A stretch of 64,000 bases of DNA from an uncultured Gemmatimonadales bacterium (GCA_963716255.1 OY970303.1:416001-480000); one strand, 5' to 3'; positions 1,244 to 32,328 are shown, counted from the stretch's first letter. The notes: a model not told the origin generated them from the letters alone. Made by a program: numbers and translations.

Positions 1244-1377
1244 GCGTGAGGGATTTCGGCCCGGAGGGGCGAGACCCCGCGGGCAGTTTCGCGGGGGCTC
1301 GACTCCGTTGGGCTGCGTTGTTTGCAGCCCTACGGAGCCGAAGCCCGACCCCGGCGCCAGCCGGGGGCACGCCCAAC
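1244..1377 (+). repeat. Structured ~135-nt intergenic repeat, copy 1
   Basis: gcgtgagggat...gagacc[stem]gggctcgactccgt[stem]acggagccgaagcccgaccccggcgccagccgggggcacgccc; matches seven other copies. Confidence 0.95.
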
Positions 1378-1400
1378 TCAGCCGTAGCCGTTCAATGCCG

Positions 1401-1961
1401 TCACAGCGGCCGGATGAACACGTGGGTCCAGCGCCCCTCGTACACGCCCACCCCGTGGTGGGTGAGCGCGCAGTTCTCGATGTTCCTGCGGTGCGGCGCG
1501 CTGTTCATCCAGCTGCGGTACGCCTCCGACGCCGACGACTGACCCCACGCGATGTTCTCGCCGCCGGTGCTGTAGCGGATCCCCGCCGCGGCCAGCCGCG
1601 CCCACGGGTCCTGGCCGTCCGGGTTGGTGTGCGAGAAGAAGGAGCGCACCGCCATGTCGCGGCTGTGCCGGGCCGCCACCTCGGCCACGCGCGCGTCCCA
1701 CACCAGCGCGGGGCAGCCGATGGACGCGCGGTGCGCGTTGACCAGCGACGTGAACTCCTGCTCGGCGGACGCGGAGGCGGAGCCGTCCGGCGCGGGCCCC
1801 GTGGGCGGCGCCTCGCACGCGGCGACCGCGATGGCGAGCGCGAGCGCGGCCCAGCCGCGGAGGCGGCGGGAGGAGCGGCGAGCCGGAGTGTCGGGGGTGG
1901 CGGCGGCGAGCGGGGCGGACGGACGGACGGCGCGGGGACCGGCGAGCGGAAGGTTCCTCAT
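1401..1961 (-). CDS. CAP (SCP/PR-1) domain secreted protein / lipoprotein
   Basis: LVNAHRAS, AARHSRDMA, FFSHTNPDG, GENIAWGQ, WMNSAPHRRNI are CAP motifs. Lipobox-like VAAC. RBS gagga before ATG at 1961. Confidence 0.92.
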   Translation of the reverse strand: MRNLPLAGPRAVRPSAPLAAATPDTPARRSSRRLRGWAALALAIAVAACEAPPTGPAPDGSASASAEQEFTSLVNAHRASIGCPALVWDARVAEVAARHSRDMAVRSFFSHTNPDGQDPWARLAAAGIRYSTGGENIAWGQSSASEAYRSWMNSAPHRRNIENCALTHHGVGVYEGRWTHVFIRPL

Positions 1962-1972
1962 GGGGGATTCCT

Positions 1973-2065
1973 CTTCGGCGGCTCGACTGGCGTGGCGGAC
2001 GCGGGTGCGTCCACGGTAGCCTCGAAGCTTTGCGTCCCCGCCTTTCGACGGGTTTGCCGTTGTCG
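1973..2065 (-). promoter_or_regulatory. c-di-GMP-I (GEMM-I) riboswitch
   Basis: Minus strand ...acaacGGCAAACCcgtcGAAAggcgGGGACGCAAAGCttcgaggCTAcc...ccagtcgagccgccgaag carries the GGCAAACC, GAAA tetraloop and GGGACGCAAAG hallmarks. It ends at the RBS of the CAP gene. Confidence 0.88.
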
Positions 2066-2214
2066 GAGGTGCTCCGGCCCCCCTGTGGGCCAGGGCTGGG
2101 TGGTCCGGCACGGGCGGGCGCCCGCGGACCGTTTTCGAACGTTGAAAAAAGATTGCGCCACCGACCCGAATCGGTCAACCCCCCGGCGGGGGACCGGCCT
2201 CTCGCCGGAGACCC

Positions 2215-2350
2215 GCGTGAGGGATTCCGGCCCGAAGGGGCGAGACCCGGCGGCCGTTTGCCGGGGCTCGACTCCGTTGCAAACGGTAGTATCGTTTGCT
2301 ACGGAGCCGAAGCCCGACCCCGGCGCCAGCCGGGGGCACGCCCGAACCCG
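2215..2350 (+). repeat. Structured ~135-nt intergenic repeat, copy 2
   Basis: Same frame as copy 1 with different but paired stems (gcaaacg/cgtttgc; ccggc/gccgg). Confidence 0.95.
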
Positions 2351-2360
2351 CCGGAATCCG

Positions 2361-3800
2361 TCAATCGGCAAGCTCCAGCAGCGCGCCGACCTCCGCCCCC
2401 TGGCGCGTGTTCACCACCCCCCGCCCCCCACCCTGCGGCTGCATCCGCATCAGCGCCCCGCCGAACCGGCTCCCGAAGGCGAACAGCCCCCAGACGACGT
2501 CGTACGGCGCCACCCCCGACGCCCCGCTCTGGCGCGTGTACGGCACCGTCTCCAGGTACTCCTGCACCACCCAGTCGTTCTCGCGCAGCGCCCGCTCCAC
2601 CCCCTCCCGCCACTCCTCGTCGGTGCGGAACCGGCCTATGTGCACCTGGCTGCCCCCCAGCGCGGTGGCCTTCTTGAGCACGAACTCCGCGCGGCGCTCC
2701 ACCACGTCTTCCGGGATGCGCAGCGGTGCCCCGCGGAACACGCTGTCGGCCGGGAGGAGGCGGCGGGTCCAGGGAACGTGCTTCTCGATCAGGTCGCGCT
2801 CCGCCCGGGTGTACTCGCCGGACCCGGCGTTCTCGGAGATCAGGGCGAGGTTGCGCTTGTCCAGCAGGAGCGCGGTGACGGGCCCGCTGAACAGGTTGAT
2901 GCGCCCCTGCTTGAAGTGCCGGATCACCAGCTGCATGTCGCTGACGCCGCCGTGCTGCTCCACCGCGGTGTGCACCGGGACGCCGTCGAGGTTGAGCACG
3001 CCGTCGGTTTCCACCAGGTCCTCCGGCGCGCACAGGAGCACCCGCCCGACGGTGGGCCGGCCGTCCTCGGCCATGGCGCGGTCCATCTCCCGCTGGTACA
3101 GCTCCGGGTCGTGCAGCGCCACCTGGTCGTCGTAGTGCGGCCGCACCATCATGGCCACGTTGAACTCGCCTTCCTTCCAGGCGCCCATGCGGGCCGTGTC
3201 GTCCAGCAGGTGCCGGAAGAGGGCCCCCAGCGTGCGGGGCGGGCGCACGGCGATCCCCCGCTCCTCCAGGAAGCGGCGGAGCTCCGGGGAGCTGCGGTAC
3301 AGCTCGCCCACCCCGTGGGAGGAGAGCCCGCCCAGGAAGCTGCCAGCGTTGAACTCGATGCACTTGAGCCCGTCCGCCGTCTCGATGTAGTCGGCGCGGG
3401 AAAGGGCGCCCTCGATCCCGGTGGGCTCCTGGAGGACGAGGTCGAGCTGCTCCGGGTCCATCTCCAGGGCGATGATCTCGGACGGGTCCATCTCCTCCAG
3501 GGCGTTGGAGCGGTAGTACTCGCTCACCGCCGCCGGGCCGCCGCGGAGGAAGCGGAGAAGCGTGCTCTTGACCAGCCGGTCGATGCCGAGCGCCACCTCC
3601 CCCATCTCGCGCGCCTGCTCCGGCCCGATGAAGATGGGCCAGGGCTGGAGGGTGAACTTGCGGTAGACGGGGTCGGCGCCGAGCGAGGGGAAGGTGGCCC
3701 GCTCCAGGTACTCCGGGTTGCGCCTCACGAACTCCATGAAGTCGCGGTTGACCTCCGACCACCGCGTGTGGACCGGGCTCGCTTCGGCCTGGGAAGGCAT
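2361..3800 (-). CDS. Circularly permuted ATP-grasp / glutathionylspermidine-synthase-like amide ligase
   Basis: SRADYI...LKCIEFNAGS, FVLKKATALGGSQVHIG, WVVQEYL and VVNTRQGA motifs. Confidence 0.7.
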   Translation of the reverse strand: MPSQAEASPVHTRWSEVNRDFMEFVRRNPEYLERATFPSLGADPVYRKFTLQPWPIFIGPEQAREMGEVALGIDRLVKSTLLRFLRGGPAAVSEYYRSNALEEMDPSEIIALEMDPEQLDLVLQEPTGIEGALSRADYIETADGLKCIEFNAGSFLGGLSSHGVGELYRSSPELRRFLEERGIAVRPPRTLGALFRHLLDDTARMGAWKEGEFNVAMMVRPHYDDQVALHDPELYQREMDRAMAEDGRPTVGRVLLCAPEDLVETDGVLNLDGVPVHTAVEQHGGVSDMQLVIRHFKQGRINLFSGPVTALLLDKRNLALISENAGSGEYTRAERDLIEKHVPWTRRLLPADSVFRGAPLRIPEDVVERRAEFVLKKATALGGSQVHIGRFRTDEEWREGVERALRENDWVVQEYLETVPYTRQSGASGVAPYDVVWGLFAFGSRFGGALMRMQPQGGGRGVVNTRQGAEVGALLELAD

Positions 3801-3965
3801 CTGGGGATCTCGGGGCTGGATGGTGCGGACGGGCGCGCGGACGGTCCCGCGCCACCCGGGGTGGTGCCGGCAAGTATACTACGGCGCGGGCGGGCTCCGC
3901 GCACGGGGCCCGCCCTTCCGGGCGCGGCGGGCCGCCGCGGAGCGCCCGCGGCGGCCCGGGGCCGG

Positions 3966-6272
3966 CTACTTCCGGGTGATGCGCATGCCGTTGGGAGCGA
4001 CGCCCGGCTTCACCTCGGCCGGCTTCGGCGCCTCGCGGGCGGCGGGCGCCGCCCCCCGCCGCTCGTCGCGGCCGCCGCCCCGGGGGCGCTCCTCGCGGCG
4101 GGACGCGCTGCCGCCTCCGCCTCCCCCGCCGCTCCCCCGCCCCGCCCCCGACTTCATGCTCAGCGCGATGCGGTTGCGCGGCACGTCCACCGAGAGCACC
4201 CGAACCGTCACCCGGTCGCCCACCTTCGCCACCTCGTTGGGGTCGCGCACGAAGCGGTCCGACATCTCGGACACGTGCACCAGCCCGTCCTGGTGGACGC
4301 CCACGTCCACGAACGCCCCGAAGGCCACCACGTTGGTGATCGTCCCCTGGAGCGTCATCCCCTCCCTGAGGTCGGCCACCTTCTGCACGTCGTCGCGGAA
4401 GGCCGGCGCCTCGAAGGCGCTGCGCGGATCGCGCCCCGGCTTCTTCAGCTCGGCGACGATGTCCTCCAGCGTGGGGAGCCCCACCCCGTCGCCCACGTAC
4501 CTGCGCGGCTCGATGCGGCGGATGGCCTCCTCGTTCCCCACCAGCGAGTCCAGCCCCACCCCCAGGTCGCGGGCGATGGCCTCCACCAGCGCATAGCGCT
4601 CCGGGTGCACCGCGGAGCCGTCCAGCGGGTGCTCGCCGCCACGCACGCGCAGGAAGCCGACCGCCTGCTCGAAGGTCCGCGGCCCCAGCCCCGGGACCCT
4701 GAGGATCTGCCTGCGCGAGCGGAAGGCCCCCTCCCGGTCGCGCGTCTCGGCGATGCGCTGCGCCACCGAGGGCCCGATCCCCGCCACGTAGGCCAGGAGC
4801 GAGGGCGAGGCGGTGTTGACCTCCACCCCCACCCGGTTCACACAGCTCTCCACCGTCTCGTCCAGCCGCCGCTTGAGCCGCGTCTGCGACACGTCGTGCT
4901 GGTACTGTCCCACCCCGATGGACTTGGGGTCGATCTTGACCAGCTCCGCCAGCGGGTCCTGGAGCCGCCGCGCGATGGACACCGCCGAGCGCAGGGTGAG
5001 GTCCAGCTCCGGGAACTCCTCGCGCGCCAGGTCGGACGCCGAGTACACCGAGGCGCCCGCCTCGTTGACCATCACCACCGTCGGCCGCTGTTCGGCCGGC
5101 AGCTCGCGCACGGTCTCGCGCAGCAGCGCGTCCGTCTCGCGGCTGGCCGTGCCGTTCCCCACCGCCACCAGCTCTACCGAGTGCTCGCGGATCATGCGCG
5201 CGAGGTCCTTCCGGGCGCGGTCCTCCTGGTGGAGGTACACGTGCCCGGTGGCGAGCAGCGAGCCGGTGCGGCTCACCACCGCGAGCTTGCAGCCGGTCCG
5301 GTACCCGGGATCGACTCCCAGCACCGTCTTCTCCCCCGCGGGCGACGACAGCAGCAGCGCCTCAAGGTTCTGCCCGAAGATGAGGATGGCCTCCTCGTCC
5401 GCGCGCGTCTTCAGCTCCATGCGCAGCTCCACCTCCACCGAGGCGGCGATCAGCCGGCGGTACGCGTCCTCCACGGCGGCGCGCATCTGCTCCGGCGCGC
5501 GCGACGGGGCCACGAAGCGCTGCGCCAGCCCCGCCGCGATCTCCTCCTCCGGCGCCACCACCCGGGCCACCAGGAACTCCTCCGCCTCGCCGCGGCGGAC
5601 CGCCAGCACGCGGTGCCCGGGGAGGTCCCGGATGGGCTGCGAGAAGTCGTAGTAGTCCTGGAACTTGGAGGTTTCCTTCTCCCTGCCGCGCGCCGCCCGG
5701 CTTTCCAGCACGCCGCGCTCGCGGGTGCGCTCGCGCACGAACGCCCGCGCCGCCGCGTCGTCCGCCACGCGCTCCGCGACGATGTCGCGCGCCCCCGCCA
5801 GCGCGTCCTCGGCGGAGCCTACCTCCCTCGCCGGGTCCACGAAATTCGCCGCGGCCGCCCGCAGCTCCGCGTCCGTCGTCGCGCCCGCCCACAGCAGCTC
5901 CGCCAGCGGCTCCAGGCCGCGCTCCGCGGCGATGGTGGCCCGCGTGCGGCGCTTGGGCTTGTACGGGCGGTACAGGTCCTCCAGCGCCGACTTGGTGTCC
6001 GCGCGCTCCATGGCGGCGCGCAGCTCCGGCGTCAGCTTCCCCTGCTCCTCCACCGACTGGAGGATGGCGCGGCGCCGCTCGTCCAGCTCGCCCAGGTACT
6101 CGTGGCGGTCGCGGACGTCGCGGATCTGCACCTCGTCCAGCTCGCCCGTGGCTTCCTTGCGGTAGCGGGCGACGAAGGGGATGGTGTTCCCCTCCAGCAG
6201 GAGATCCAGCGCGGCGCGCACCTGGTTGACGCGGAGTCCAAGCTCGGCGGCGATCTTTTCAGCGTACGGCAT
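3966..6272 (-). CDS. tex: Tex family RNA-binding transcriptional accessory protein
   Basis: NTIPFVARYRKEATG, LEDLYRPYK, GVDPGYRTGCK, EAGASVYSAS, IGVGQYQHDV, C-terminal S1 domain. Confidence 0.97.
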   Translation of the reverse strand: MPYAEKIAAELGLRVNQVRAALDLLLEGNTIPFVARYRKEATGELDEVQIRDVRDRHEYLGELDERRRAILQSVEEQGKLTPELRAAMERADTKSALEDLYRPYKPKRRTRATIAAERGLEPLAELLWAGATTDAELRAAAANFVDPAREVGSAEDALAGARDIVAERVADDAAARAFVRERTRERGVLESRAARGREKETSKFQDYYDFSQPIRDLPGHRVLAVRRGEAEEFLVARVVAPEEEIAAGLAQRFVAPSRAPEQMRAAVEDAYRRLIAASVEVELRMELKTRADEEAILIFGQNLEALLLSSPAGEKTVLGVDPGYRTGCKLAVVSRTGSLLATGHVYLHQEDRARKDLARMIREHSVELVAVGNGTASRETDALLRETVRELPAEQRPTVVMVNEAGASVYSASDLAREEFPELDLTLRSAVSIARRLQDPLAELVKIDPKSIGVGQYQHDVSQTRLKRRLDETVESCVNRVGVEVNTASPSLLAYVAGIGPSVAQRIAETRDREGAFRSRRQILRVPGLGPRTFEQAVGFLRVRGGEHPLDGSAVHPERYALVEAIARDLGVGLDSLVGNEEAIRRIEPRRYVGDGVGLPTLEDIVAELKKPGRDPRSAFEAPAFRDDVQKVADLREGMTLQGTITNVVAFGAFVDVGVHQDGLVHVSEMSDRFVRDPNEVAKVGDRVTVRVLSVDVPRNRIALSMKSGAGRGSGGGGGGGSASRREERPRGGGRDERRGAAPAAREAPKPAEVKPGVAPNGMRITRK

Positions 6273-6311
6273 CGGTTGAATCTGAACGTTGAGCGAACCG
6301 CCCTGTCGACG

Positions 6312-6450
6312 GCGGGTTCGGGCGTGCCCCCGGCTGGCGCCGGGGTCGGGCTTCGGCTCCGTAACGCAGCAAACAACGCTGCGTAACGGAGTCGAGCCCC
6401 CGCGAAACTACCCGCGGGGTCTCGCCCCTTCGGGCCGGAATCCCTCACGC
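6312..6450 (-). repeat. Structured ~135-nt intergenic repeat, copy 3
   Basis: Reverse-complement match; variable stem acgcagc/gctgcgt. Confidence 0.95.
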
Positions 6451-6565
6451 GGGGCTCGCGCCGGGGGCAGCTACGACAAGTTAATCGGAGAGATCGAAGG
6501 AAGGCAGACTGGACAACCGGCAGACCCGTCGCACGAGGCCGGCACGCCGCGAACCGCCGTCGCAG

Positions 6566-6588
6566 TTGCAGGCTGTTCCCTGTTCCCT
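6566..6588 (-). repeat. Short repeat (gggaaca)2-gcctgcaac, second copy at ~16384-16407
   Basis: gttgcaggctgttccctgttccct is the reverse complement of agggaacagggaacagcctgcaac at 16384. Confidence 0.7.
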
Positions 6589-6595
6589 GCCGTCC

Positions 6596-7018
6596 TCAGT
6601 CCTCCGCCGCCGTGTTGAGCGCGTGGTGGTGCGTCCCGTACCAGGCCCCGAAGACCGCGGCCGCGATCTGGAGGAGGAGGGTCGCCGCGGCGACGGTGGG
6701 GTTGAGGCCCGTCCACTCCGCCGCGTCGACCGCCTGGGCGAGCAGGTTGGCGAGAAACCACACCACCAGCGAGAACAGGCCGATCCCCACCCCGTGCAGC
6801 ACCGGGGCCTCCCCCGTGCGCCACCCCACCAGCCACCCCCCGCAGAAGAACCCCACCAGCACCGCCAGGAGCACCCACCCGTTCCCGGAGTCAGCCGCGG
6901 GGTGGACGAGCCCCACGGCGGACATCCCCACCAGCGCCAGCCCCGTGACCGCGGCGGCGGCGAACCAGCCGAAGGCGACCCACGACGGGCGGACGTTCTG
7001 GAGGTGCTCGGTCTGCAT
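6596..7018 (-). CDS. Small 4-TM membrane protein, function unknown
   Basis: Four hydrophobic segments; directly follows rnhB. Confidence 0.8.
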   Translation of the reverse strand: MQTEHLQNVRPSWVAFGWFAAAAVTGLALVGMSAVGLVHPAADSGNGWVLLAVLVGFFCGGWLVGWRTGEAPVLHGVGIGLFSLVVWFLANLLAQAVDAAEWTGLNPTVAAATLLLQIAAAVFGAWYGTHHHALNTAAED

Positions 7019-7022
7019 GGGG

Positions 7023-7676
7023 TCAGCGTCCGTTCAGGGTGAGCTGCACCGGCGCGAAGGAGCGCCGGTGGTGCGGCGTGGGGCCCAGGCGCGCGAGCGC
7101 GTCCAGGTGCTCCGGGGTGCCGTACCCCTTGTTGCGCTCCCACCCGTAGCCGGGGTAGCGCGTCGCCAGGCGGGTCATCAGCCGGTCGCGTACCACCTTG
7201 GCGAGGATGGACGCGCAGGAGATACAGTGCACCAGCCGGTCGCCCTCCACCACCGCCGTGTGCGTGTCCGGCCCCAGCTCCTTCACCGGCAGCCCGTCCA
7301 CCAGCAGGTGGTCCGGCCGCACCGGGAGCCGCGCCACGGCACGCTGCATGGCGAGTGCCGTCGCGCGGCGGATGTTGATGGCGTCGATCTCGCGCGCCGA
7401 GGCGGCGCCCACCCCGAAGGCCACGGCGCACGCGCAGATCTCCTCCACCAGCTCCACGCGCCGCTCCGCCGCCAGACGCTTGCTGTCGTCCGCCCCGTCC
7501 ACGCACCTCCCCTCCGGCAGGATCACCGCGGCGGCCACCACCGGCCCGGCGAGCGGCCCCCGCCCCACCTCGTCCACCCCGGCCAGCACGGAAACGCCGC
7601 GGCTCCAGAACCCGCGCTCGATGGAGAGCCGGTCCCGGAGCCGTTCGTCGTCACCTGCCGACGCCTTTCTAGCCAT
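7023..7676 (-). CDS. rnhB: Ribonuclease HII
   Basis: GVDEVGRGPLAGPVVAAAV, DSKRL, ASILAKVVRD, NKGYGTPEH. Start placed at the ATG at 7676. Confidence 0.96.
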   Translation of the reverse strand: MARKASAGDDERLRDRLSIERGFWSRGVSVLAGVDEVGRGPLAGPVVAAAVILPEGRCVDGADDSKRLAAERRVELVEEICACAVAFGVGAASAREIDAINIRRATALAMQRAVARLPVRPDHLLVDGLPVKELGPDTHTAVVEGDRLVHCISCASILAKVVRDRLMTRLATRYPGYGWERNKGYGTPEHLDALARLGPTPHHRRSFAPVQLTLNGR

Positions 7677-7909
7677 CGAGCCGTTGCCGTTTGTCGACCC
7701 CGGCAGGATGCCACGGCGAAGGAAAATCGCGTGAATCAAGGCGGAGCCGAGGAGCGACCGAAACGTACTTCATGTACGTCGCAGGGAGCCCCGCAGGCGA
7801 CAACGCAGAGTCACGCGATTTTCCGAGCCGCTCACACTAGTGGGGCACCACGAGTGAGTTGATGGGGTATCCTTCGGCTTTGGGTACGCAGTTGTACAGG
7901 AGCCGAAGG

Positions 7910-9027: not shown

Positions 9028-9031
9028 TCCA

Positions 9032-9379: not shown

Positions 9380-9458
9380 TGTGTCGCCCTTGGTGTTCTG
9401 AAAAGTGGAGAGGTTGAGCCGGCCGCCCACCGGGTCCGCGGGGGCACGACGCCCAACG

Positions 9459-10693: not shown

Positions 10694-10716
10694 GGGGCGC
10701 TGCCCGGGCGCGGGGC

Positions 10717-11412
10717 TCAGCCCTGCGGCTGCTCGCCCTCGGCCTCGGCCGGGGCGGCCTCACCCTCGGCCTCGGCCGGGGCGGCCTCACCCTCGGCCTC
10801 CACCGGGGCGGCCTCGCCCTCGGCGGGCGCGGCGTCGGCCTCGGCGGGAGCAGCTTCGGCTTCGGCCTCGGCGGGAGCGGTCTCGGTCTCCGTCACGGCG
10901 GGGGCAGCCTCGGCCTCGGTCTCGGCGCCGCCCGTCATGCGCTCGGCGACCGCGCCGGCGGCGTCACGCACCGCCTCGACCACCGTGGAGGCCGCGCTGG
11001 TGGCGGTCTCCGCGACCGTGGAAGCCACGCTGGAAGCGGTCCCGGCGACGGCGGCGACCGCCGCGCTGGCCGTCTCCGCCACCTTGCCGGCCGCGCCCTT
11101 CACGGCGCCGGCGGCCTTGGAGGCCACCCCGCCCGCGGCGGCCACGGCGTCCTCGACCGCCGACGGCTCCTTGTAGACGCCCGCCTGCTTGAAGAGCGAC
11201 TGCACGGTGTCGGTGGGCATGGCGCCCTTGCCGATCCACGCGAGCGCCTTGTCCCGGTCCACGACCAGGGTGGCGGGGTTGGTGGTCGGGTTGTAGTGCC
11301 CCACGTTGGCCACGAAGCGGCCGTCGCGCGGGAAGCTGCTCTCCGCGACCACGATGCGGTAGTGCGGGGCCTTCTTACGGCCCATGCGGCGAAGACGGAT
11401 CTTCAGCGCCAT
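10717..11412 (-). CDS. rpsP: 30S ribosomal protein S16 with long Ala/Glu-rich C-terminal extension
   Basis: [37 protein letters not shown] aggag before ATG at 11412. Confidence 0.97.
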
Positions 11413-13081: not shown

Positions 13082-13218
13082 GCGGGTTCGGGCGTGCCCC
13101 CGGCTGGCGCCGGGGTCGGGCTTCGGCTCCGTAACGCAGCAAACAACGCTGCGTAACGGAGTCGAGCCCCCGCAAACAGCCGCGCGGTCTCGCCCCTTCG
13201 GGCCGAAATCCCTCACGC
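13082..13218 (-). repeat. Structured ~135-nt intergenic repeat, copy 4
   Basis: Reverse-complement match to the consensus. Confidence 0.95.
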
Positions 13219-16569: not shown

Positions 16570-16704
16570 GCGTGAGGGATTCCGGCCCGAAGGGGCGAGA
16601 CCCGCGGGCAGTTTCGCGGGGCTCGACTCCGTTGCACACAGTTTTATCGTGTGCTACGGAGCCGAAGCCCGACCCCGGCGCCAGCCGGGGGCACGCCCGA
16701 ACCC
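16570..16704 (+). repeat. Structured ~135-nt intergenic repeat, copy 5
   Basis: Variable stem gcacac/gtgtgc. Confidence 0.95.
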
Positions 16705-20244: not shown

Positions 20245-20286
20245 GTTGCTACCGGGTCACGATCCTGCCGGTAATCCGAATCCCGA

Positions 20287-20341
20287 CTCTTTAGCGTTTT
20301 TTTTAGGTGGTCGCAAGCGGTCGCGCTCAAATCCATCCACC
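20287..20341 (-). promoter_or_regulatory. SAM-II riboswitch
   Basis: Minus strand GGUGG-AUGGAUUUGAGCGCGACCGCUUGCGA-CCACC-U-A-run-CGCUAAAGAG: P1 stem, GAUUU and GCUUGC loop elements, and the A-rich linker plus GCUAAA of SAM-II; lies upstream of metH. Confidence 0.85.
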
Positions 20342-20574
20342 GTCGCCTCGCGGCGACAGGACCAAGCTACACGGCGGGCGCGGGCCGCGCAAGGGAGCCG
20401 TTCATCCTTTTACCCGGATGCACGGCTGAACAACGTCGGGCGGCGGCGCCGCGGCCGGAGATGCTTGCCATGCCGGGGCGCGCCGTCGAATATGATGCAG
20501 GCTGCGGCCGCCGGGCCGGCCGGGCGCCTTTCCGGACCGGTCCACCCGCACTCCCACCTGGCAAGGAGCCCCGA

Positions 20575-21942: not shown

Positions 21943-22060
21943 TCTCTCCCCCGGTCGGCTCTCCCTTCAGGAAAAACCCGGCTCCCGTCCATCAAATCAC
22001 CTGGATCCCGCGACCCGGCGGGGTCACCAGCCGTCCTCATCCTCCGGCATCCACACCGCC

Positions 22061-24895: not shown

Positions 24896-24951
24896 GCCGG
24901 GACGCCGGGCCGGTCGCCTGCCACTGACCACCTGCGAGCGCGAGGAAAAGA

Positions 24952-25590: not shown

Positions 25591-25811
25591 CGCCCCGGCG
25601 GCCCACCTCTGCCGGCCCCGACGCCCGCCACCCCCGCCCGGGTGGCGGGCGTCGCGCCGGGTGCAAGCGAAGCGGCCACACCCGGCGCGCCGGGCGAAGA
25701 AGCTTGCCTCCCGCATGTTTTCCGTCCATTCTGGCCGACGGAGCGCCGGGGGATCCGGACCGCTCGGCTCCCCGGAGGAGCCCCTTCACCCTTCCTCGGA
25801 ACAGGCAGACG

Positions 25812-27344
25812 ATGACATTCCGGCTTCTCCCCCTCCGCGCCGCGGCCCCGCTCCTCCTCGCGGCGGCGCTGGCCGCGTGCGCCGAGCGCGCCGATTCGCC
25901 GCTCTCCCCCGCCCCGGCGCCGCGCGCCGACGTCGCGGCCGCCGCGGTGACGGGAACCATCGTGCTGGCGGGCGGCGGCGCGGAGGGAGACGTGGGCGAC
26001 ACCTCGTCGTGGAGCTACAAGCTGTACAGGGAGGTGGTGGAGAACGGCGACGTGGACGGCGACGGCGTGGTCCGCGTGGCGGTGCTGACGGTGGACGCGT
26101 CCACCTCGTTCATCACCGACTACTTCGAGTGGATCGGGACCACGCTGGGCGTGCCGGTGGACGCCACGATCTACCAGGTGACCACGCGGGCGGAGGCCAA
26201 CGACCCGGCGCGGGTGGGCGCGGTGGCCAACGCCGACGCGGTCTTCCTCAAGGGCGGAGACCAGGGCGTGTACTACGACCAGTGGAACGGCACCCTCCTG
26301 GAAACGCACGTGCGCACCGTGGTGGAGACGCGCGGCGGGGCCGTGGGCGGCACCAGCGCGGGGGCCATGAGCCAGTCGCAGTTCTGCCTGTGCGGCAGCG
26401 CCGACCTGGTCTCCGCCGACGTGATGACCAACTCGCACACCTCCTTCCTCAACGATGTGAGCGACGGCGGCACCGGCATCCACACCGATTTCCTGAATTT
26501 CCTGGGCGGCGCCGTGGTGGACACACACTTCACCGAGCGCGCGCGCTTCGGGCGGCTGCTGGGGACCATGGCGAAGGCCGCCGAGGACAACGCCGCGCCC
26601 GGGATCCTGGGCATCGGCATCGAGCGGCAGACAGGGCTCGCCATCCGCGGCGGGGTGGCCGAGGTGATCGGCAACGGCGAGGTGTCGTTCGTGCAGCAGA
26701 CGCCCGCCACGGCGCGCATCCGCACGCCGGGCAAGCCGCTCGTGTACACGCACCTGCGGGTGGACCGGCTCACGCACGGGTGGACGTACGACCTGGGCGC
26801 GAAGCTGCCGGGCACGGCGGCGCCGGGGGTGCTGGCCGTCAGCTACGCCGGCGACGGCGCGGCCAACTCCGGGGCGCTCAGCATCGCGGGCTCCACGGAG
26901 CGGGACAACTCCAGGTTCGAGAAGGTGGCCACGTACTCCAGCAAGGACTACTCGCTGGCGAACACCTCGGCGAGCGTGTTCGTGCGCAGCGGCGTGGGCT
27001 TCACGGACGCGGGCAACTCCGGCAATCGCGGCTTCAAGCAGGAAACGCTGTTCCGCGCCCTGTACGACGTGCCGGCGTACAGCGGGCTCCTGCTGTTTTC
27101 CGGCGGCACCGCGTCGCGCGTGGCCGCCAGCCCGGACGTGCTCTCGTTCTCCGGCGCGGGGACCATCGTGGTGGACGGCAGGACGGTGGCGAGCCGCGGG
27201 CTTTCGCCGTACAAGTCGTACCAGGCCACCAGCAAGGGGACGCTCAGGGCGGCGGCGCTCACCGGCCTCACGGTGCACGTGCTCGCCGAGTCCGCCACCA
27301 CGGGCAAGCGCTACAACACGCGGACTCATGCGGTGGTGCCGTGA
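25812..27344 (+). CDS. Cyanophycinase-like S51 peptidase lipoprotein
   Basis: LAAC lipobox; IVLAGGG, ADAVFLKGGDQ, GGTSAGAM, DTHFTERARFGRL, GIGIE. Confidence 0.88.
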   Translation: MTFRLLPLRAAAPLLLAAALAACAERADSPLSPAPAPRADVAAAAVTGTIVLAGGGAEGDVGDTSSWSYKLYREVVENGDVDGDGVVRVAVLTVDASTSFITDYFEWIGTTLGVPVDATIYQVTTRAEANDPARVGAVANADAVFLKGGDQGVYYDQWNGTLLETHVRTVVETRGGAVGGTSAGAMSQSQFCLCGSADLVSADVMTNSHTSFLNDVSDGGTGIHTDFLNFLGGAVVDTHFTERARFGRLLGTMAKAAEDNAAPGILGIGIERQTGLAIRGGVAEVIGNGEVSFVQQTPATARIRTPGKPLVYTHLRVDRLTHGWTYDLGAKLPGTAAPGVLAVSYAGDGAANSGALSIAGSTERDNSRFEKVATYSSKDYSLANTSASVFVRSGVGFTDAGNSGNRGFKQETLFRALYDVPAYSGLLLFSGGTASRVAASPDVLSFSGAGTIVVDGRTVASRGLSPYKSYQATSKGTLRAAALTGLTVHVLAESATTGKRYNTRTHAVVP

Positions 27345-27361
27345 CTGAACTGATCTGAGTG

Positions 27362-27800
27362 GCGGGTTCGGGCGTGCCCCCGGCTGGCGCCGGGGTCGGG
27401 CTTCGGCTCCGTAAGCGAGCAAACGACGCTCGCCAACGGAGTCGAGCCCCCGCGAAACTGCCCGCGGGGTCTGAGCAGCCGGGATGATGCTTGACACTTT
27501 GGACCGGGAGGATGCTTGACACTCCCTCCCGTTCCTACCAAGGACTTACGCTGTTTCTGACCAGAGAGCAGTGAGGGATCCCCTCAGTGCTACCCTCTCC
27601 TACGGCAGGGGGCAACACCGAGCAGCAGTGAGGGTTACCCTACCTAAGCATTCAGCAAAGCGCTTGGGATTCGATCCATTTCCTAGTCGCTGCGCCGAAG
27701 CCTCTCTCATCAGGGAGTGTCAAGCATCCTCCCGGTCTATTCTGTCAACCATCAACCCGGTCCATACCGTCTCGCCCCTTCGGGCCGTAATCCCTCACGC
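27362..27800 (-). repeat. Structured repeat copy 6, split by an insertion (27362-27472 and 27769-27800)
   Basis: Consensus ...ggggtct|cgccccttcgggccg... is interrupted at gtct. Confidence 0.92.
27473..27768. mobile_element. Non-autonomous ~296-bp MITE with doubled subterminal inverted repeats
   Basis: Perfect 26-bp IR gaccgggaggatgcttgacactccct (27502-27527 / 27712-27737), plus a second outer copy at each end; gtc(t) duplicated at 27469-27472 and 27769-27772; lower GC than the flanks. Confidence 0.85.
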
Positions 27801-27892
27801 GGCTCCATGTGAAAATCCGGCACATAATTCGCGTCACTTTCCGGCGCGGCAACTCCGCCGTGGGTGGGAACCCCCCAATCGCAGAGGGAATC

Positions 27893-28102
27893 ATGAGTCA
27901 GTCTTCGCGCAGCAGGATCCGGCTGGCCTTCGGGGCCGCGATCGTCGCGTCGATGGGCTTCGGCGTCACGCAGGCGGTGGCGAAGCCGCAGGCGGCCGAG
28001 GTCGGTCCCAGGACCTGCCCGACGGGCACGGTGGCGTGCACCTGCGGCTTCCAGATCATCGCCTGCGTGGCCCCGGGGGGCCTCTGCCCGCACTGCCCCT
28101 GA
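27893..28102 (+). CDS. Small secreted 6-Cys peptide (69 aa)
   Basis: MSQSSRSRIRLAFGAAIVASMGFGVTQAVA-KPQAAEVGPRTCPTGTVACTCGFQIIACVAPGGLCPHCP; RBS gaggg; terminator follows. Confidence 0.8.
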   Translation: MSQSSRSRIRLAFGAAIVASMGFGVTQAVAKPQAAEVGPRTCPTGTVACTCGFQIIACVAPGGLCPHCP

Positions 28103-28127
28103 CGGAGAGCGGTGCACCGGACTGGGG

Positions 28128-28164
28128 CGGCCCCGCACCGGAATGGTGCGGGGCCGTTCTCGTT
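28128..28164 (+). terminator. Intrinsic terminator after the Cys-rich peptide
   Basis: cggccccgcacc-ggaat-ggtgcggggccg (12-bp stem) then ttctcgtt. Confidence 0.75.
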
Positions 28165-28283
28165 GCGGGACGGGGCTACGTAGCGGTTTGGCGGCTCCCG
28201 GCGGAGCGCGTAGCTTGCGGGTGCACCCGTGGCGGCCGCGCCGCGGGTGAGGCCCCGGCCCGCGCTCCCCGCCTCCCCCGCGC

Positions 28284-29531
28284 TTGAACGCGTACAGCCT
28301 ACTCCTGCTCCTGGGCGCCGCCAACGGCTTCATCCTGGCCGCGCTCCTCCGGCTCGCGCGCGCCAACCGCCGCGCGAACCGCCTGCTCGCGGCGCTGGTC
28401 GCCCTGGTCTCGCTGCGTCTCCTCCCGTACGTGCTCGGCTACGCGGGCGCCTACGACGCGCACCGCTGGCTGACCTTCGCCCCCTTCGACCTTTCGCTCG
28501 CCTTCGGACCCCTCCTGTGGGGGTACGTGGCCGCGCTCACCACCGGCGAGCGGCCGCGGCGCTGGGGGTGGCACCTGGCCCCCGCCGCCGCGCAGCTCGC
28601 CTACTCGCTGGCGTGCTTCGCCCTGGCGCCGGAGGCCAAGTGGCGGTGGTACACCGGGCCCCACCTGCACGCCGTCGCGCCGGCGGAGCTCGCGGCGGCG
28701 CTGCTGTCGCTGGCGGCGTACCTGCGCGCGGCGTGGCGCCGCTACGCCGCCTACCAGGAGTGGCTGGCCGCCAACCTGAGCAACCGCGAGGAGCTGCGCC
28801 TGGGGTGGCTCCGGGGGGTGCTCCTGGCGTTCGGCGCCACGCTGTGCGTGGGCGCCGGGTTCGCCCTGACCTCCTGGCTGGTCACCCCGCTCGACTACTT
28901 CGACCGCTTCCCGCAGATGGTCTGGCTGGCCGGGCTGGTCTACTTCCTGGGGCTGGTGGGATGGCGGCACGGCGAGCGCGCCTACCCCCATCCCGCCCCG
29001 GACGAGGCCGTCCCCGCCGCGACCGCCGCCGACCCGGAGCCGCCTCCGGCCCGGAGCCCGGACGACGCCCCGCCGCCGGCCGTCCGCTCCGGGGCGACGG
29101 CGGAGGCCGCGGCGGACGCCGCCGGTGCGACGGCGGCGCTCGCCGCGCGGTGGGCGGCGCGGGTGGCGGAGGCCGGCTGGTGGCGCGACGAGGAGCTCAC
29201 GCTCGCGGCGCTCGCGCGGCACCTGGGCACCTCGCCGCGCTCCCTGTCGCGCGCGCTGAACGAGGGGCTGGGGCAGAGCTTCAACGAGTTCGTCAACCGC
29301 ATGCGGGTGGACGCGGTCGCCGCCGAGCTGCGCGACCCGGCGCGCCGGCGCGACCTGCTCGCCGTCGCGCTGGACGCGGGCTTCAGCTCCAAGGCCAGCT
29401 TCAACCGCGCGTTCCGGGCGTACACCGGCACCACCCCGTCCGAATTCCGCCGCCGCGCGGAGGCGGAACGTCTCAATGCGCGCCAGTGTGCGCTCCCCGC
29501 GGAAAGTGCGACGCGGGGCGGCGACGGCTGA
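28284..29531 (+). CDS. AraC-family regulator with N-terminal multi-TM sensor domain
   Basis: About seven hydrophobic helices, then LTLAALARHLG...SFNEFVNRMRV...ALDAGFSSKASFNRAFRAYTGTTPSEFR. Confidence 0.92.
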   Translation: MNAYSLLLLLGAANGFILAALLRLARANRRANRLLAALVALVSLRLLPYVLGYAGAYDAHRWLTFAPFDLSLAFGPLLWGYVAALTTGERPRRWGWHLAPAAAQLAYSLACFALAPEAKWRWYTGPHLHAVAPAELAAALLSLAAYLRAAWRRYAAYQEWLAANLSNREELRLGWLRGVLLAFGATLCVGAGFALTSWLVTPLDYFDRFPQMVWLAGLVYFLGLVGWRHGERAYPHPAPDEAVPAATAADPEPPPARSPDDAPPPAVRSGATAEAAADAAGATAALAARWAARVAEAGWWRDEELTLAALARHLGTSPRSLSRALNEGLGQSFNEFVNRMRVDAVAAELRDPARRRDLLAVALDAGFSSKASFNRAFRAYTGTTPSEFRRRAEAERLNARQCALPAESATRGGDG

Positions 29532-29571
29532 GCTACCTTGCGGGCGTACCCCGAACCCGAGGACCGCGCTC

Positions 29572-31107
29572 ATGCACCTGCCGCCCATCCCTCCCCCGCC
29601 CTCCCGTCCAGCTCGCTCGGTCCGCGCCGCCACGCTGGCGCTCGCCCTGGCGGCGTGCGGCGCCGGGGCGGGCCCGCTGCGCGCCCAGTCGCCCCCGGCG
29701 CGCATCCCGGCCGCGGAGCTGCTGGAGGACTTCGCTTTGCTCCGCGACGCGTACGAGACGCTGCACCCCGGCCTGTACCGCTACGCCGACAGCGCACAGG
29801 TGGCCGCGAACTTCGGCGCGCTCCGGGAGGAGCTGAGCCGCGACCGCACGCTGGCGGAAGCGTACCTCGCCATCTCCGTCTTCCTGGCGAGCGTCCGCTG
29901 CGGCCACAGCTACGCCAACTTCTTCAACCAGCCGGACGCCGTGGCGGGGGCGCTGCTGCAGCGCGACCGGCTTCCCTTCCTGTTCCGCTGGATCGGCGGC
30001 CGCATGGTCGTCACCCGCAACCTGTCCGCGGAGCCGCGCCTCGCCCCGGGGACGGAGGTGCGCCGCATCAACGGCGTTCCCGCCGCCGACGTCCTCCGCG
30101 GCCTGCTCACGGTGGCGAGGGCGGACGGCTCCAACGACGCCAAGCGCGTCGCGGGGATGGAACTGCGGGGCGACAGCCGCTACGAGGCGTTCGACGTCTT
30201 CTTCCCCCTCCTCTTCCCGCCCCCGGACGGGCCGTGGAGCTTCGAGGTGGCCGGGCCCCTGGGCGCCCCCGCCGCCACGGTCCGCGCCCGCCCCCTCGCC
30301 TACGCAGAGCGGCTGGCCGCGACCGGGCGCGCCGCCGCGGACCGGCCCGCGGACGACCCGGGCTGGGAGTTCCGCTTCCTGGACGACGGGACCGGCTACC
30401 TGCGCATGCCCACCTGGGCGCTGTACAATTCCCGCTGGGACTGGAAGGCGTACCTGGACAACGTGTTCGCCCGGCTCGACGAGCGGGGCGCGGGGGCGCT
30501 GGTGATCGACCTGCGCGGCAACGAGGGGGGAACCGGGGTGGGGGACGAGATCCTGTCCCGGCTGGTGACGCGCGACCTCCGCCTGGACGGGTTCCGCCGC
30601 CGGGTCCGCGGCCGCAGCGTCCCCGAGCGCCTGCGGCCGCACCTGGACACCTGGGACCGCTCCTTCCTGGACTGGGGCGACCAGGCCGTGCCCGCCGAGG
30701 GCGGCTTCTACACCCTGACGCGATACGACGACGAGCCCGGGAGCAGCGTCGTGCGGGCCGCCGCCCGCCCCTTCCGCGGGCGCACCTACGTGCTGGTGGA
30801 CGCCTCCAACAGCTCCGCGACCTTCGAGTTCGCCCTGGCCGCGCGACAGAACCGCCTGGCGACGCTGGTGGGGCAGCCCACCGGCGGCAACCAGCGCGGC
30901 ATCAACGGCGGCGCGTTCTTCTTCCTGCGCCTCCCCCGCAGCGGCATCGAGGTGGACGTACCGCTCATCGGCTACTTCCCGCCGGGCGAGCGGCCCGACG
31001 CCGGCATCGTCCCGGACGTGCTCGTGGAGCCCAGCGCCGACGACGTGGCCCGCGGCGTGGACACGGAGCTGCGCGCCGTGCTGGATCTCCTTCGCCGGAC
31101 GCCCTGA
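29572..31107 (+). CDS. S41 family peptidase, secreted
   Basis: LHPGLYRY, LVIDLRGNEGG, NSSATFEFA, LVGQPTGG, GIVPDV. Confidence 0.9.
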   Translation: MHLPPIPPPPSRPARSVRAATLALALAACGAGAGPLRAQSPPARIPAAELLEDFALLRDAYETLHPGLYRYADSAQVAANFGALREELSRDRTLAEAYLAISVFLASVRCGHSYANFFNQPDAVAGALLQRDRLPFLFRWIGGRMVVTRNLSAEPRLAPGTEVRRINGVPAADVLRGLLTVARADGSNDAKRVAGMELRGDSRYEAFDVFFPLLFPPPDGPWSFEVAGPLGAPAATVRARPLAYAERLAATGRAAADRPADDPGWEFRFLDDGTGYLRMPTWALYNSRWDWKAYLDNVFARLDERGAGALVIDLRGNEGGTGVGDEILSRLVTRDLRLDGFRRRVRGRSVPERLRPHLDTWDRSFLDWGDQAVPAEGGFYTLTRYDDEPGSSVVRAAARPFRGRTYVLVDASNSSATFEFALAARQNRLATLVGQPTGGNQRGINGGAFFFLRLPRSGIEVDVPLIGYFPPGERPDAGIVPDVLVEPSADDVARGVDTELRAVLDLLRRTP

Positions 31108-31132
31108 CCCGGAGATCGGGGTGAAAGACCGC

Positions 31133-31264
31133 GGTCCGGGCGTGCCCCCGCTGGCGCGGGGTCGGGCTGCGGCTCCGTAGCAGACGAAACGACCGTCTGC
31201 AACGGAGGCGAGCCCCGGCAAACTGCCGCCGGGTCTCGCCGCTTCGCGCTCGCATCCCTCACGC
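31133..31264 (-). repeat. Structured ~135-nt repeat, copy 7 (most divergent)
   Basis: rc gcgtgagggatgcgagcgcgaagcggcgagacccggcggcagtttgccggggctcgcctccgttgcagacg...cgtctgctacggagccgcagcccgaccccgcgccagcgggggcacgccc. Confidence 0.9.
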
Positions 31265-31294
31265 GGGTTTGGCGCTGGCGCCCGCGCGGGTGGC

Positions 31295-31345
31295 CCCCCT
31301 CACCCCCCGGCCCCCTCTCCCCCGCAAGCGGGGGAAAGGGGGAGT
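31295..31345. repeat. Palindromic REP-like unit attached to repeat copy 7
   Basis: ccccctcaccccccggccccctctcccccgcaagcgggggaaagggggag is near-identical to the reverse complement of 16490-16540. Confidence 0.8.
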
Positions 31346-31589
31346 ACCGCACGGCACCTTTGCCTTGGACGCCTTGCGGACGCCTCGAGGAGCCTTGGTC
31401 TACACGGATCTCGTTTGACCCGGCGCGTGCGCTGCCCGCTCGTCGTCCGGGATCGGGCGAAGCCGACCGTCTTGCAGGCGAGCGCCTCCACGACACACAT
31501 TGCAAAAGGGCCCGACGCGGGCGGTGCGGACCCGGATCCTCGGCGCAGGCGCCGGGCCGCCGCGTACATCTCACACGCCTGCCACTCCC

Positions 31590-32072
31590 ATGCGATCGAC
31601 TCCGTTCCTCCTGTGCCTGGCGACCGGCTGCGCCGCCCTGTCCCGCTCCGCTCCCGTGCCGCCGGAGGTGACCGAGCTGGCGGGGTGCTACGCCATGGAG
31701 TACGGCGCCTGGGGGCCCGAGATCCACGACATAATTCCGTACTCGGCGCCGAAACTTGCCGCGGCTATCCGCCTGCGCACCGCAGCGTGGAGGGATCGGA
31801 TCGATCGGAAAAGGCGATTGTACCACCTCGACGTACTCCCCGCCGCGCCGACCGGCCCCTACCCGTTCCAGGTGTGGAGTCTCGTCGGCAGGGACTCGGT
31901 CTGGGTGGGAATGCCGGTTTCGCTTTTCGGGGCTATCGAGCTGCACCTCCGGCGGGAGGACGCCGATCTGCGCGGAGAGGTCGAGGCCTCCACCGACTAC
32001 GTCAACCCTCCGGCGCCATACTCGACGCGCACAGGGGCCACCGCCCGCCGCATCCCCTGCCCCGCTTCGTAG
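31590..32072 (+). CDS. Hypothetical lipoprotein
   Basis: MRSTPFLLCLATGC lipobox-like signal. Confidence 0.6.
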   Translation: MRSTPFLLCLATGCAALSRSAPVPPEVTELAGCYAMEYGAWGPEIHDIIPYSAPKLAAAIRLRTAAWRDRIDRKRRLYHLDVLPAAPTGPYPFQVWSLVGRDSVWVGMPVSLFGAIELHLRREDADLRGEVEASTDYVNPPAPYSTRTGATARRIPCPAS

Positions 32073-32119
32073 CGCGCGCACCCAACCTGAGCCGGCCCCG
32101 GACGGCTGGAGCCCGACGC

Positions 32120-32162
32120 AGCGAACCGCCCCGGACCTCGACGAGGTCCGGGGCGGTTCGCT
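32120..32162. terminator. Perfect 20-bp hairpin between convergent genes (likely bidirectional terminator)
   Basis: agcgaaccgccccggacctc-gac-gaggtccggggcggttcgct. Confidence 0.7.
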
Positions 32163-32194
32163 TCACCTGCGGCCGCGTGGCTCGGATGAGCCTC

Positions 32195-32328
32195 GCGTGA
32201 GGGATTTCGGCCCGAAGGGGCGAGACCGCGCGGCTGTTTGCGCGGGCTCGACTCCGTTACGCAGCGTTGTTTGCTGCGTTACGGAGCCGAAGCCCGACCC
32301 CGGCGCCAGCCGGGGGCACGCCCAAACC
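32195..32328 (+). repeat. Structured ~135-nt intergenic repeat, copy 8
   Basis: Stems cgcgc/gcgcg and acgcagc/gctgcgt. Confidence 0.95.

Follow-up and report, generated by a model that had tools for sequence, protein, structure and literature searches.

A folded module with the Flavo-1 frame, repeated in a Gemmatimonadota chromosome, as a candidate single-stranded DNA landmark

The 64,000-nucleotide stretch analyzed here (the window) contains an intergenic repeat whose copies lie on both strands and whose stems change in sequence. It raises the question of which molecule is folded, what the fold is for and how it came to be repeated. Eight copies had been claimed from inspection of the window and all eight were found:

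1244-1374, plus strand: full repeat copy with the six-helix core
2215-2343, plus strand: full repeat copy
6320-6450, minus strand: full repeat copy; a Tex gene lies downstream on the same strand
13090-13218, minus strand: full repeat copy; an SRP54-family gene lies downstream on the same strand
16570-16698, plus strand: full repeat copy, 3′ of a methionine synthase gene, with a short 5′ accessory module
27370-27800, minus strand: split copy, whole span, interrupted by a MITE
27370-27472, minus strand: 3′ part of the split copy
27473-27768, no strand: 296-bp MITE inside the split copy, with a 4-bp duplication
27769-27800, minus strand: 5′ part of the split copy
31138-31264, minus strand: full repeat copy whose small hairpin is the variant CGC-GAA-GCG
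31265-31344, minus strand: accessory modules on the 5′ side of the 31138 copy, among them a C-rich/G-rich hairpin (read directly)
32195-32323, plus strand: full repeat copy nearest the family consensus, which served as query

The stem alleles, T-T mismatch, small-hairpin swap and end pairing described in the initial annotation are all present in the sequence, and the 3′ ends of six of the eight copies were confirmed to lie near a convergent stop codon, at a distance of 15-30 nt. Comparison with DUF559 loci revealed that the C-rich/G-rich hairpin at 31265-31344 resembles the type flanking DUF559 genes. The MITE has subterminal inverted repeats of ~49 bp and derives from a 1.33-kb rve-integrase (IS481-like) element; all 8 genomic members of its family sit at an identical site of the repeat. 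A degenerate GCCGT-type tail of the 1244-1374 copy reaches the stop of a convergent CAP-domain gene at 1401.

The 130-nt unit consists of six helices with a four-way junction inside. Covariation was analyzed in 20 copies from the window genome and its relatives, which as kin are not independent: 96% of 911 cells pair, both sides have changed in 27 of the 46 pairs, and the covariation score was 0.361 versus 0.098 after shuffling (0 of 500 shuffles reached 0.361, and slid controls gave 0.06 or less). Folding of two copies gave z values of -3.7 to -4.6 as RNA and -4.7 to -6.2 as DNA. Among 198 distinct members from different phyla, the unconstrained pair beside P1 is Watson-Crick in 189, and each of the four pair types occurs. 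The long-range P0 and P1 pairs co-vary between distantly related phyla and also within a subfamily of seven copies in the window genome. A MAFFT alignment that mixed the plasmid, phage and window forms, which differ in length, was misaligned and was left out of these counts. Compensatory change and covariation well above shuffles support the earlier claim that selection acts on the fold. The same pattern could in principle be a by-product of palindrome-perfecting template switching with the fold itself unselected, and stem A does have roughly a dozen multi-pair alleles and few forms between them. The probability of this explanation is close to negligible: conserved T-T and A-G mismatches have been left uncorrected, and the long-range compensation largely refutes it, although template switching may add to the variation of stems A and B.

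The initial annotation had proposed either a functional RNA or a REP-like single-stranded DNA, and it is the second half of that proposal that stood. Of the 815 full copies, 748 could be parsed for the small hairpin and 67 could not; 743 of the parsed ones have a C-GNA-G loop there, a type of loop that is unusually stable in DNA. When 107 copies were folded with DNA parameters, the minimum-energy structure contained the covarying P1 in 102 on the element strand and in 72 on the reverse strand; RNA parameters recovered it in 26 and 12, respectively, missing it on the element strand in 81. Triloops and folding together favour single-stranded DNA over RNA, and we infer that the working molecule is single-stranded DNA of the GCGTGAGGGAT strand. 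A functional structured RNA (an ncRNA, a ribozyme, or a 3′-UTR or leader element, on either strand) would agree with the strong covariation, an RNA folding z of about -4, the closeness of copies behind stop codons and the filing of the short form as RNA in Rfam. We nevertheless consider it very unlikely, given the DNA-type triloops, the missed P1 and the lack of strand preference (227 copies sense versus 256 antisense, p=0.20). The repeat matched no ribozyme or riboswitch family in Rfam, and Flavo-1 matches in F. psychrophilum occur in either orientation and are frequently untranscribed, according to the available part of PMC9723704. Around one copy no sigma-70 or terminator patterns were seen (sigma-70 scan 32080-32360). 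The small size of the G-T over A-C excess (98 versus 66) counts against the single-stranded DNA reading.

A possible relation to Flavo-1 had been suggested. The outer frame is indeed shared with the supplementary alignment of Weinberg 2010, but no window or genome copy matched RF01705, either at the gathering threshold (42 bits) or at E<=10, and the Rfam searches at these thresholds returned unrelated hairpin matches only. Among short relatives found by the frame, 3 of 19 loci pass the Flavo-1 gathering score.

Counting across the genome, which is 96.7% complete, gave 863 matches, 815 of them full length and 797 distinct, so that the family is far larger than the window alone could reveal. Very few broken pairs were found among the 815 copies. 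The repeat occupies 266 of 676 convergent, 470 of 4,066 tandem and 45 of 676 divergent gaps. The idea that copies insert precisely at stop codons was considered and rejected: the distance is spread, a degenerate tail fills it, and we read the arrangement as use of space. Copies are spaced by a median of 5.6 kb, on both strands, and divide between the replichores as 429 to 386 (p=0.14, with rough ori/ter positions); replichore-linked priming was rejected for this lack of bias. A 321-kb island with 104 large gaps is devoid of the repeat. When occupied orthologous gaps were compared, 21 of 46 were filled in a single genome only, and stem A differed in 15 of 16 parsed orthologous pairs. Stems A and B are associated no more strongly than after shuffling (V=0.11 versus 0.12), and 25 of 25 combinations occur. 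Pieces retaining only the 3′ part number 36 versus about 3 true 5′-only pieces (among 9 listed). The repeat is restricted to a single genus and its close relatives; among 200 other genomes of the phylum, 7 have 1-2 chance-like matches each, and a phylum-wide pattern was rejected. IS elements target the copies. With its unbiased strand, reassorted stems, gain and loss among relatives and role as an IS target, the chromosomal repeat behaves like REP/BIME sequences. A lattice of priming or replication-restart sites domesticated by the host, or a drive for DNA transfer resembling uptake sequences, either of them kept for the benefit of the cell, would account for the 5.6-kb spacing on both strands and the rarity of broken pairs. 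It is highly improbable in view of the narrow host range, the absence of replichore bias, the empty island and the gain and loss of sites.

A mobiliser was sought in the same genome. The HUH transposase (TnpA/RAYT) of the earlier proposal received no support, as PF01797 had 0 matches in the 96.7% complete genome, and the four-helix-bundle gene (PF05635) likewise had 0 in the genome search. Clustering of 1,329 proteins of 60-420 aa encoded near copies revealed no enriched family save IS inserted in copies. The variant pair C1:1510838/1512201 was rejected as a REPtron; it encloses an ABC permease. Of the 815 copies, 291 have a DUF559-type hairpin no more than 350 nt away on the 5′ side and 0 have one on the 3′ side; in the remaining 524 copies no hairpin of this type was detected. 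In 11 of 11 loci the DUF559 gene is bracketed by inverted hairpins, and none of these genes is flanked by the repeat core itself. The Vsr-like DUF559 nuclease is the likely candidate mobiliser.

Homologues of the repeat occur in plasmids and phages. A profile of 19 plasmid and phage members only, chosen with anchors common to the window repeat, gave 736 matches in the window genome, all but 14 on main-family copies, and detected both copies in F (E 3e-8 and 4e-6). The module was found in 4,471 of 72,556 plasmid records, and 3,543 of these plasmids are conjugative. On the transferred strand of F it immediately follows Frpo1 and Frpo2 on their 3′ side; in F and pC15-1a it is on the ssiD strand, 93-94 nt past the published ssiD end in 4 of 4 cases, so that published ssiD ends short of it. 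Its start is 40-41 nt past the ColIb ssi end motif. It is also present in IncN and other conjugative leading regions, with 4 copies in an IncN plasmid and 3 variants, two of them weak, in R46. Twenty-five copies in 10 plasmid regions were examined: they are co-oriented in 9 of 9 multi-copy regions, and 21 are on the template strand of the next 5′-side gene, a count that ignores two hypothetical ORFs annotated over the module. Fifteen of the 25 precede ssb, ardC, ccg, DUF932 or DUF3560 operons, and the other 10 are not before named establishment genes. The module was not detected in ColIb-P9 (1-45 kb), where a different folded sequence stands behind 2 of 3 ssi ends, and with DNA parameters the IncN module folded no more stably than its shuffles (z 0.2).

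According to the available part of a preprint (bioRxiv 10.64898/2026.01.09.698686), rifampicin abolishes early conversion of F near ssp1/Frpo, which disfavours a strong primase/primosome site at the F module. The same single-stranded module could instead be a barrier or insulator that stalls second-strand synthesis or upstream transcription just before the single-strand promoter and so prolongs early expression, the chromosomal copies still being selfish. It stands on the exact side from which the complementary-strand polymerase or an upstream transcript would come, and upstream genes frequently end 2-70 nt away. That preprint, in the part available, also shows a structural roadblock at F ssp2; ssp2 is, however, a different site, and upstream of the antirestriction gene there the profile had no match. 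A barrier also gives a poor account of the next group of homologues, and we regard it as unlikely.

In microviruses the module is intergenic and present in single copy. Single-stranded DNA phages show a T bias (PMC3278643, in the part available). In 7 microvirus genomes with the module sense to the genes, T makes up 0.51-0.63 of coding four-fold sites (0.59 in phiX174), and in 12 genomes with the module antisense A makes up 0.49-0.59, so that 19 of 19 genomes carry the module on the T-rich strand. This placement in Bacteroidota-type microviruses implies one negative-sense clade; the sample comprises three clades with one orientation switch, and virion polarity is deduced from base composition. 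phiX174 itself (NC_001422) had no match with four profiles at E<=1. A phage collection searched with one phage form gave 4 weak matches. Longer viral loci contain 53 copies, of which 15 have a gene of their own strand on the 5′ side, and inverted pairs occur in 3 of 8 multi-copy loci. These inverted pairs, like the gap occupancy, presence/absence among relatives and IS targeting in the chromosome, would suit a REP/MITE-type repeat whose fold is a substrate of some nuclease or transposase and whose plasmid and phage copies are insertions with no priming role. The fixed slot at Frpo1/Frpo2, the co-orientation in plasmids and the tracking of the T-rich strand argue against this; nor were RAYT, an enriched neighbour family among the proteins clustered, target-site duplications (at the filled and empty sites displayed) or MITE-type terminal inverted repeats seen, the repeat ends pairing over only 5 bp. 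We judge it quite unlikely.

The occurrence of homologous modules beside F single-strand promoters and in small single-stranded DNA phages makes a folded single-stranded DNA signal likely. On balance we favour the view that the repeat is the long version of a folded, widely distributed DNA module with the Flavo-1 frame, a single-stranded landmark of single-strand origins and promoters, amplified selfishly and REP-like in this chromosome. The module is predicted to load a host priming machine and so help to start second-strand synthesis. In plasmids and phages it would assist RNA polymerase (more likely) or primase/primosome, and the primer or transcript would run toward the 5′ side of the module. 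In the chromosome, DUF559 may nick the fused hairpins and free a strand, which its own module would help to make double-stranded and which could then recombine into other copies or new intergenic sites. Such a route is proposed to leave the 3′ end constant and the 5′ modules variable, without duplicating the target. A bolder extension is tentative and has rather less than an even chance: Flavo-1 would be no RNA but the tip of a cross-phylum single-stranded DNA priming landmark that F/IncN leading regions share with plasmids and phages of Bacteroidota and with the second-strand origins of microviruses; it would mark a clade of negative-sense microviruses whose packaged strand is the non-coding one; and with DUF559-nicked hairpins it would form a miniature self-priming replicon that has colonised the chromosome 815 times.

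A literature search found no description of the module as a unit, of the DUF559-repeat link or of negative-sense microviruses; Masai and Arai 1997, Nomura 1991 and Delver and Belogurov 1997 could cover the F or CUP segment. Flavo-1, an orphan motif for 15 years, gains a role testable with plasmid F and M13 in E. coli K-12, and attention is drawn to an overlooked conserved module that thousands of conjugative plasmids carry next to the classic single-strand promoter. Uncultured Bacteroidota-type microviruses gain a candidate second-strand origin, and some are predicted to have reversed genome polarity. The data also suggest a route from a plasmid or phage signal to a REP-scale chromosomal repeat without RAYT.

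The complementary-strand origins of single-stranded DNA phages include phiX174 PAS, the G4 ori and the M13 minus origin. In microviruses the folded module lies between genes, on the predicted virion strand; no similarity was found between the module and the phiX174-type signal. With Frpo/ssiD of F, ssi1-3 of ColIb-P9 and the class 1-3 single-stranded DNA promoters (PMC9849209, PMC11541004, PMC12672017) the plasmid homologues share strand and neighbourhood, being on the transferred strand upstream of leading-region operons, a likeness inapplicable to chromosomal copies. In the Samuel 2024 table the low-confidence Frpo* 2 holds the whole module and Frpo* 6 and 7 hold part. Class 1 Frpo/ssi elements differ in that their -35/-10 boxes lie in a long stem, whereas the module is compact and multi-junction, has no boxes, lies outside the published sequences and has no homology to them. 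The CUP repeats of IncN plasmids (Delver and Belogurov 1997, as cited in PMC6289460 and PMC5371602) are a further comparison, as the module copies of the IncN plasmid and R46 occupy the distal end of repeated leading-region spacers; the available parts of the two latter papers report CUPs as double-stranded DNA promoters with ArdK sites and mention no folded module. REP/BIME and REPIN-RAYT systems share with the window repeat hundreds of intergenic palindromic copies, enrichment between convergent genes, mosaic modules, use as IS targets and a single candidate mobiliser gene enclosed by hairpins of its own. REP/BIME palindromes are single and 20-40 nt long, whereas the window repeat is a 130-nt multi-junction unit with few-copy homologues in plasmids and single-stranded DNA phages; in place of a Y1/RAYT gene it has the DUF559 candidate, tied to accessory hairpins. 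Flavo-1 (RF01705; Weinberg et al. 2010, PMC2864571) shares the outer frame GCGTKAGGGAT...AGCCCGAC, the GGG/CCC helix and the A-G mismatch, and is likewise multi-copy, intergenic and found in both orientations. Its single long inner hairpin is replaced in the window repeat by a four-way junction (three extra helices), and the latter is under the Rfam threshold, resides in a Gemmatimonadota host and is read as single-stranded DNA; intermediate forms that link the two occur in phages, Fibrobacter and plasmids.

All eight repeat copies lie in the window at the positions first claimed for them. A profile built from six of the window copies and searched against the source genome (8.42 Mb, 73% GC) returned 863 matches, 815 of them full length and 797 distinct. 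Close matches were found in all eight same-genus genomes; of 32 relatives further removed, four also had them, two only marginally. The same form recurs in records whose titles name Longimicrobiaceae or Gemmatimonadota, which is therefore the likely host group. Seven of 200 other genomes sampled from the phylum contained one or two pattern matches, chance-like in appearance. Other features observed in the window are:

1013-1085 (-), tRNA
1973-2067 (-), c-di-GMP-I-GGC riboswitch upstream of a CAP-domain gene
10706-10992, array of 21/27-nt tandem repeats inside a coding region
20281-20346 (-), borderline SAM-II match upstream of methionine synthase
43153-63983 (-), large modular NRPS-like genes with a 3.2-kb period and zero repeat copies

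The repeat folds into six helices. P0 pairs its two ends with each other; P1 (GGG/CCC with an A-G mismatch) meets P5, the 3′ hairpin, in a three-way junction and also closes a four-way junction with stem A, stem B and the triloop hairpin as its arms. The pairs of this fold rank highest by mutual information (813 distinct rows). Both sides have changed in 27 of 46 pairs, with a score of 0.361 versus 0.098 for shuffled sequences (20 rows); because the copies are kin, these figures count sequences and not events. P0 and P1 are both altered on both sides in one source-genome subfamily, whose inner anchors resemble those of the plasmid F version (G000:C1 denotes contig coordinates of the source genome):

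G000:C1:619743, 619986, 1510831, 1512196, 4299559, 7798364 and 7840246, the seven copies of the subfamily in which P0 and P1 are compensated

Of 748 copies parsed at the small hairpin, 743 read C-GNA-G; in other phyla, P5 loops are mostly GNA or GNNA. Such loops are very stable in DNA and are not known to be so in RNA. The covarying P1 was recovered with DNA parameters in 102 of 107 sampled copies (element strand) versus 26 of 107 with RNA parameters. G-T exceeded A-C only mildly (98 vs 66), and the IncN module folded no better than shuffled sequences. Flavo-1 matches in F. psychrophilum are described in both orientations and frequently fall outside transcripts (PMC9723704). We consider the functional form of the module very probably to be DNA.

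Analysis of the chromosomal distribution revealed that 814 of the 815 full copies are intergenic. By our own gene calls (5,419 genes), copies are present in 266 of 676 gaps between convergent genes, in 470 of 4,066 tandem gaps and in 45 of 676 divergent ones. No orientation preference was seen in tandem gaps (227 sense vs 256 antisense, p=0.20) or between replichore strands (429 leading vs 386 lagging, p=0.14, with the origin placed roughly). The short distance from the 3′ end to a convergent stop codon, noticed initially in the window, holds for 542 of 814 copies (median about 24 nt), and degenerate GCMGT units, between one and four of them, fill this space. No linkage was seen between the alleles of stems A and B (V 0.11 vs 0.12 shuffled; 647 of 815 copies parsed). 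A 321-kb island (G000:C1:4876961-5198486), in which there are 104 large gaps, contains zero full copies. A Tn3-like transposase, helicases and a duplicated gene cluster were seen in this island, judged from first residues only.

Comparison with about 1 Mb from three relatives (89-95% identity, contigs picked for holding repeat matches) covered 411 orthologous gaps. The repeat was present in 46 of these, in both genomes at 25 and in one genome at 21. Stem A alleles differ in 15 of the 16 shared pairs parsed on both sides, and flanking modules and tails likewise differ between shared copies; no target duplication was visible at the compared sites. Among partial copies, 36 retain the 3′ end and nine of those listed the 5′ end, these nine including five complete or internally deleted variants and one chance match. 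The chromosomal behaviour of the repeat is of the REP/BIME type. The HUH transposase proposed in the initial annotation was not found, a search of the source genome for RAYT genes (PF01797) giving no match.

The repeat is itself a target for insertion: all 13 full IS or MITE copies from three families (names inferred from Pfam) are repeat-internal. Four rve-integrase elements and their four MITEs occupy one site of the repeat (8/8), four IS4-like elements are inserted in stem B, and one IS5-like element lies in the stem A loop, its one partial relative being located elsewhere.

Window 27473-27768, 296-bp MITE of the rve-integrase (IS481-like) element
G000:C1:639709-641035, rve-integrase (IS481-like) element, with three further copies

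Hairpins fused to many copies also flank genes for Vsr-like DUF559 nucleases. The source genome has only one clear gene of this kind (3HRL match, E 4e-20):

G000:C1:125110-125650 (L083:1380-1910, the same locus), DUF559 gene with inverted hairpins on both sides

Inverted hairpins bracket DUF559 at 11 of 11 loci, this one and all ten clear loci of five relatives (L401-L410). At the orthologous site the DUF559 proteins are only 53-60% identical, the cassette diverging far faster than its neighbours. Of the 815 cores, 291 have DUF559-type hairpins on the 5′ side and none has them on the 3′ side; 255 of 335 copies of one hairpin type lie 5′ of cores. DUF559 is a putative nicking enzyme of the fused hairpins. 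A 1.39-kb IS (seven near-identical copies and one diverged) was also observed inside a DUF559-type hairpin in five of the seven close copies:

G000:C1:835965, 1706921, 3796209, 3968254 and 6027540, 1.39-kb IS in a DUF559-type hairpin

The likeness to Flavo-1, raised initially as a possibility, is borne out for the outer frame, which is the same in the alignment of PMC2864571, but by score the repeat is not a Flavo-1 member. Searches with this frame gave two overlapping sets of 88 and 91 viral loci and, for long forms only, an estimated 7,100 genome stretches. The 124 long-form genome loci listed are mostly from Bacteroidota, with Fibrobacter, Treponema and Longimicrobiaceae, and the same four-way interior recurs in several forms from phages and Fibrobacter. 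In several clusters of tailed-phage loci the module comes after a terminase-like gene or lies ahead of opposite-strand ArdA/ArdC-like genes. Within viral loci of at least 9 kb, 38 of 53 module copies have opposite-strand 5′ genes, and three of eight multi-copy loci contain inverted pairs. Five viral contigs (L311, L376, L331, L365, L386) are phage regions with two to five divergent modules, some co-oriented and others in inverted pairs.

In conjugative plasmids the module was reached through weak matches. A window copy used as query matched 146 plasmid records (E 2e-4 to about 0.3), 125 of them conjugative, and following these matches led to modules with the same inner anchors; one such module then matched 4,471 plasmid records. 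A profile built from 19 members of plasmids and phages, chosen for shared anchors, recovered 736 source-genome sites, which ties the families together. Plasmid F has two modules, one behind each Frpo, on the published ssiD strand and 93-94 nt past the ssiD end. For 25 copies in ten plasmid regions reached through these matches, modules share a single strand in all nine multi-copy regions, and 21 of 25 are carried by the strand that serves as template for the next 5′-side gene. Fifteen copies lie ahead of named establishment genes and 10 do not. A low-confidence candidate of Samuel 2024, Frpo* 2, contains one module, unnamed in that supplementary table. No module match was detected in phiX174 or in the first 45 of 93 kb of ColIb-P9. 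At two of the three ssi ends of ColIb-P9, the slot that the module has in F, here at a distance of 41 nt behind the end, holds a different GC-rich folded sequence, possibly a functional substitute:

L415 (ColIb-P9), near 34925 and 27892, minus strand, GC-rich folded sequence

Microviruses carry a single intergenic copy, whose orientation relative to the genes is sense in some genomes and antisense in the rest. At coding four-fold sites T prevails in 7/7 sense genomes (0.51-0.63; phiX174 0.59) and A in 12/12 antisense genomes (0.49-0.59), a count leaving out one further GenBank genome that was not parsed. The same T-rich-strand association was seen in 21/21 shorter loci (an overlapping set). 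As ssDNA phages favour T-ending codons (PMC3278643), the module likely marks the virion strand. The antisense clade is predicted from its composition to package the non-coding strand:

L308, L315, L343, L347, L351, L355, L358, L362, L363, L369, L380 and L399, A-rich (antisense) clade, mirror of phiX174

A tree of 14 of these capsids with phiX174 placed the sense genomes in two clades and the antisense genomes in one, which makes this one orientation switch rather than 19 observations. No report of reversed-polarity microviruses was found in the literature searched, including the available part of PMC3394797.

With fold, homology, placement and chromosomal dynamics established, the module may be viewed as a landmark made of folded ssDNA, sitting at the 3′ border of a larger non-coding origin/promoter region. 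It would load RNA polymerase or primase, and synthesis would then run towards its 5′ side. Frpo is described as promoter and primer source at once (PMC9849209, PMC11541004 and PMC12672017). Early F conversion near ssp1 is rifampicin-sensitive according to bioRxiv 10.64898/2026.01.09.698686, and this speaks against F having an independent primase site. The same source lends weight to the main rival, that the module is a replication roadblock, since folded ssDNA is able to act as one. On the landmark reading, the chromosomal route would start with a nick at the fused DUF559 hairpins; the second strand would then be made with the module's own help, and recombination would carry the product into other repeat copies. 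Such a route would fit because the 3′ end is fixed, the 5′ modules vary, duplications are absent and alleles are shuffled; against it weighs the absence of a detected DUF559-type hairpin from two thirds of copies. We give the combined mechanism, ssDNA landmark with DUF559-linked chromosomal amplification, a little more credence than doubt.

No description of the module as a unit was found in the literature searched, some key older papers being beyond its reach. Compared with known systems, the repeat is not a MITE, not Frpo, not a RAYT-associated REP and, by score, not Flavo-1. It acts like a REP in the chromosome and probably as a single-strand signal in mobile elements.
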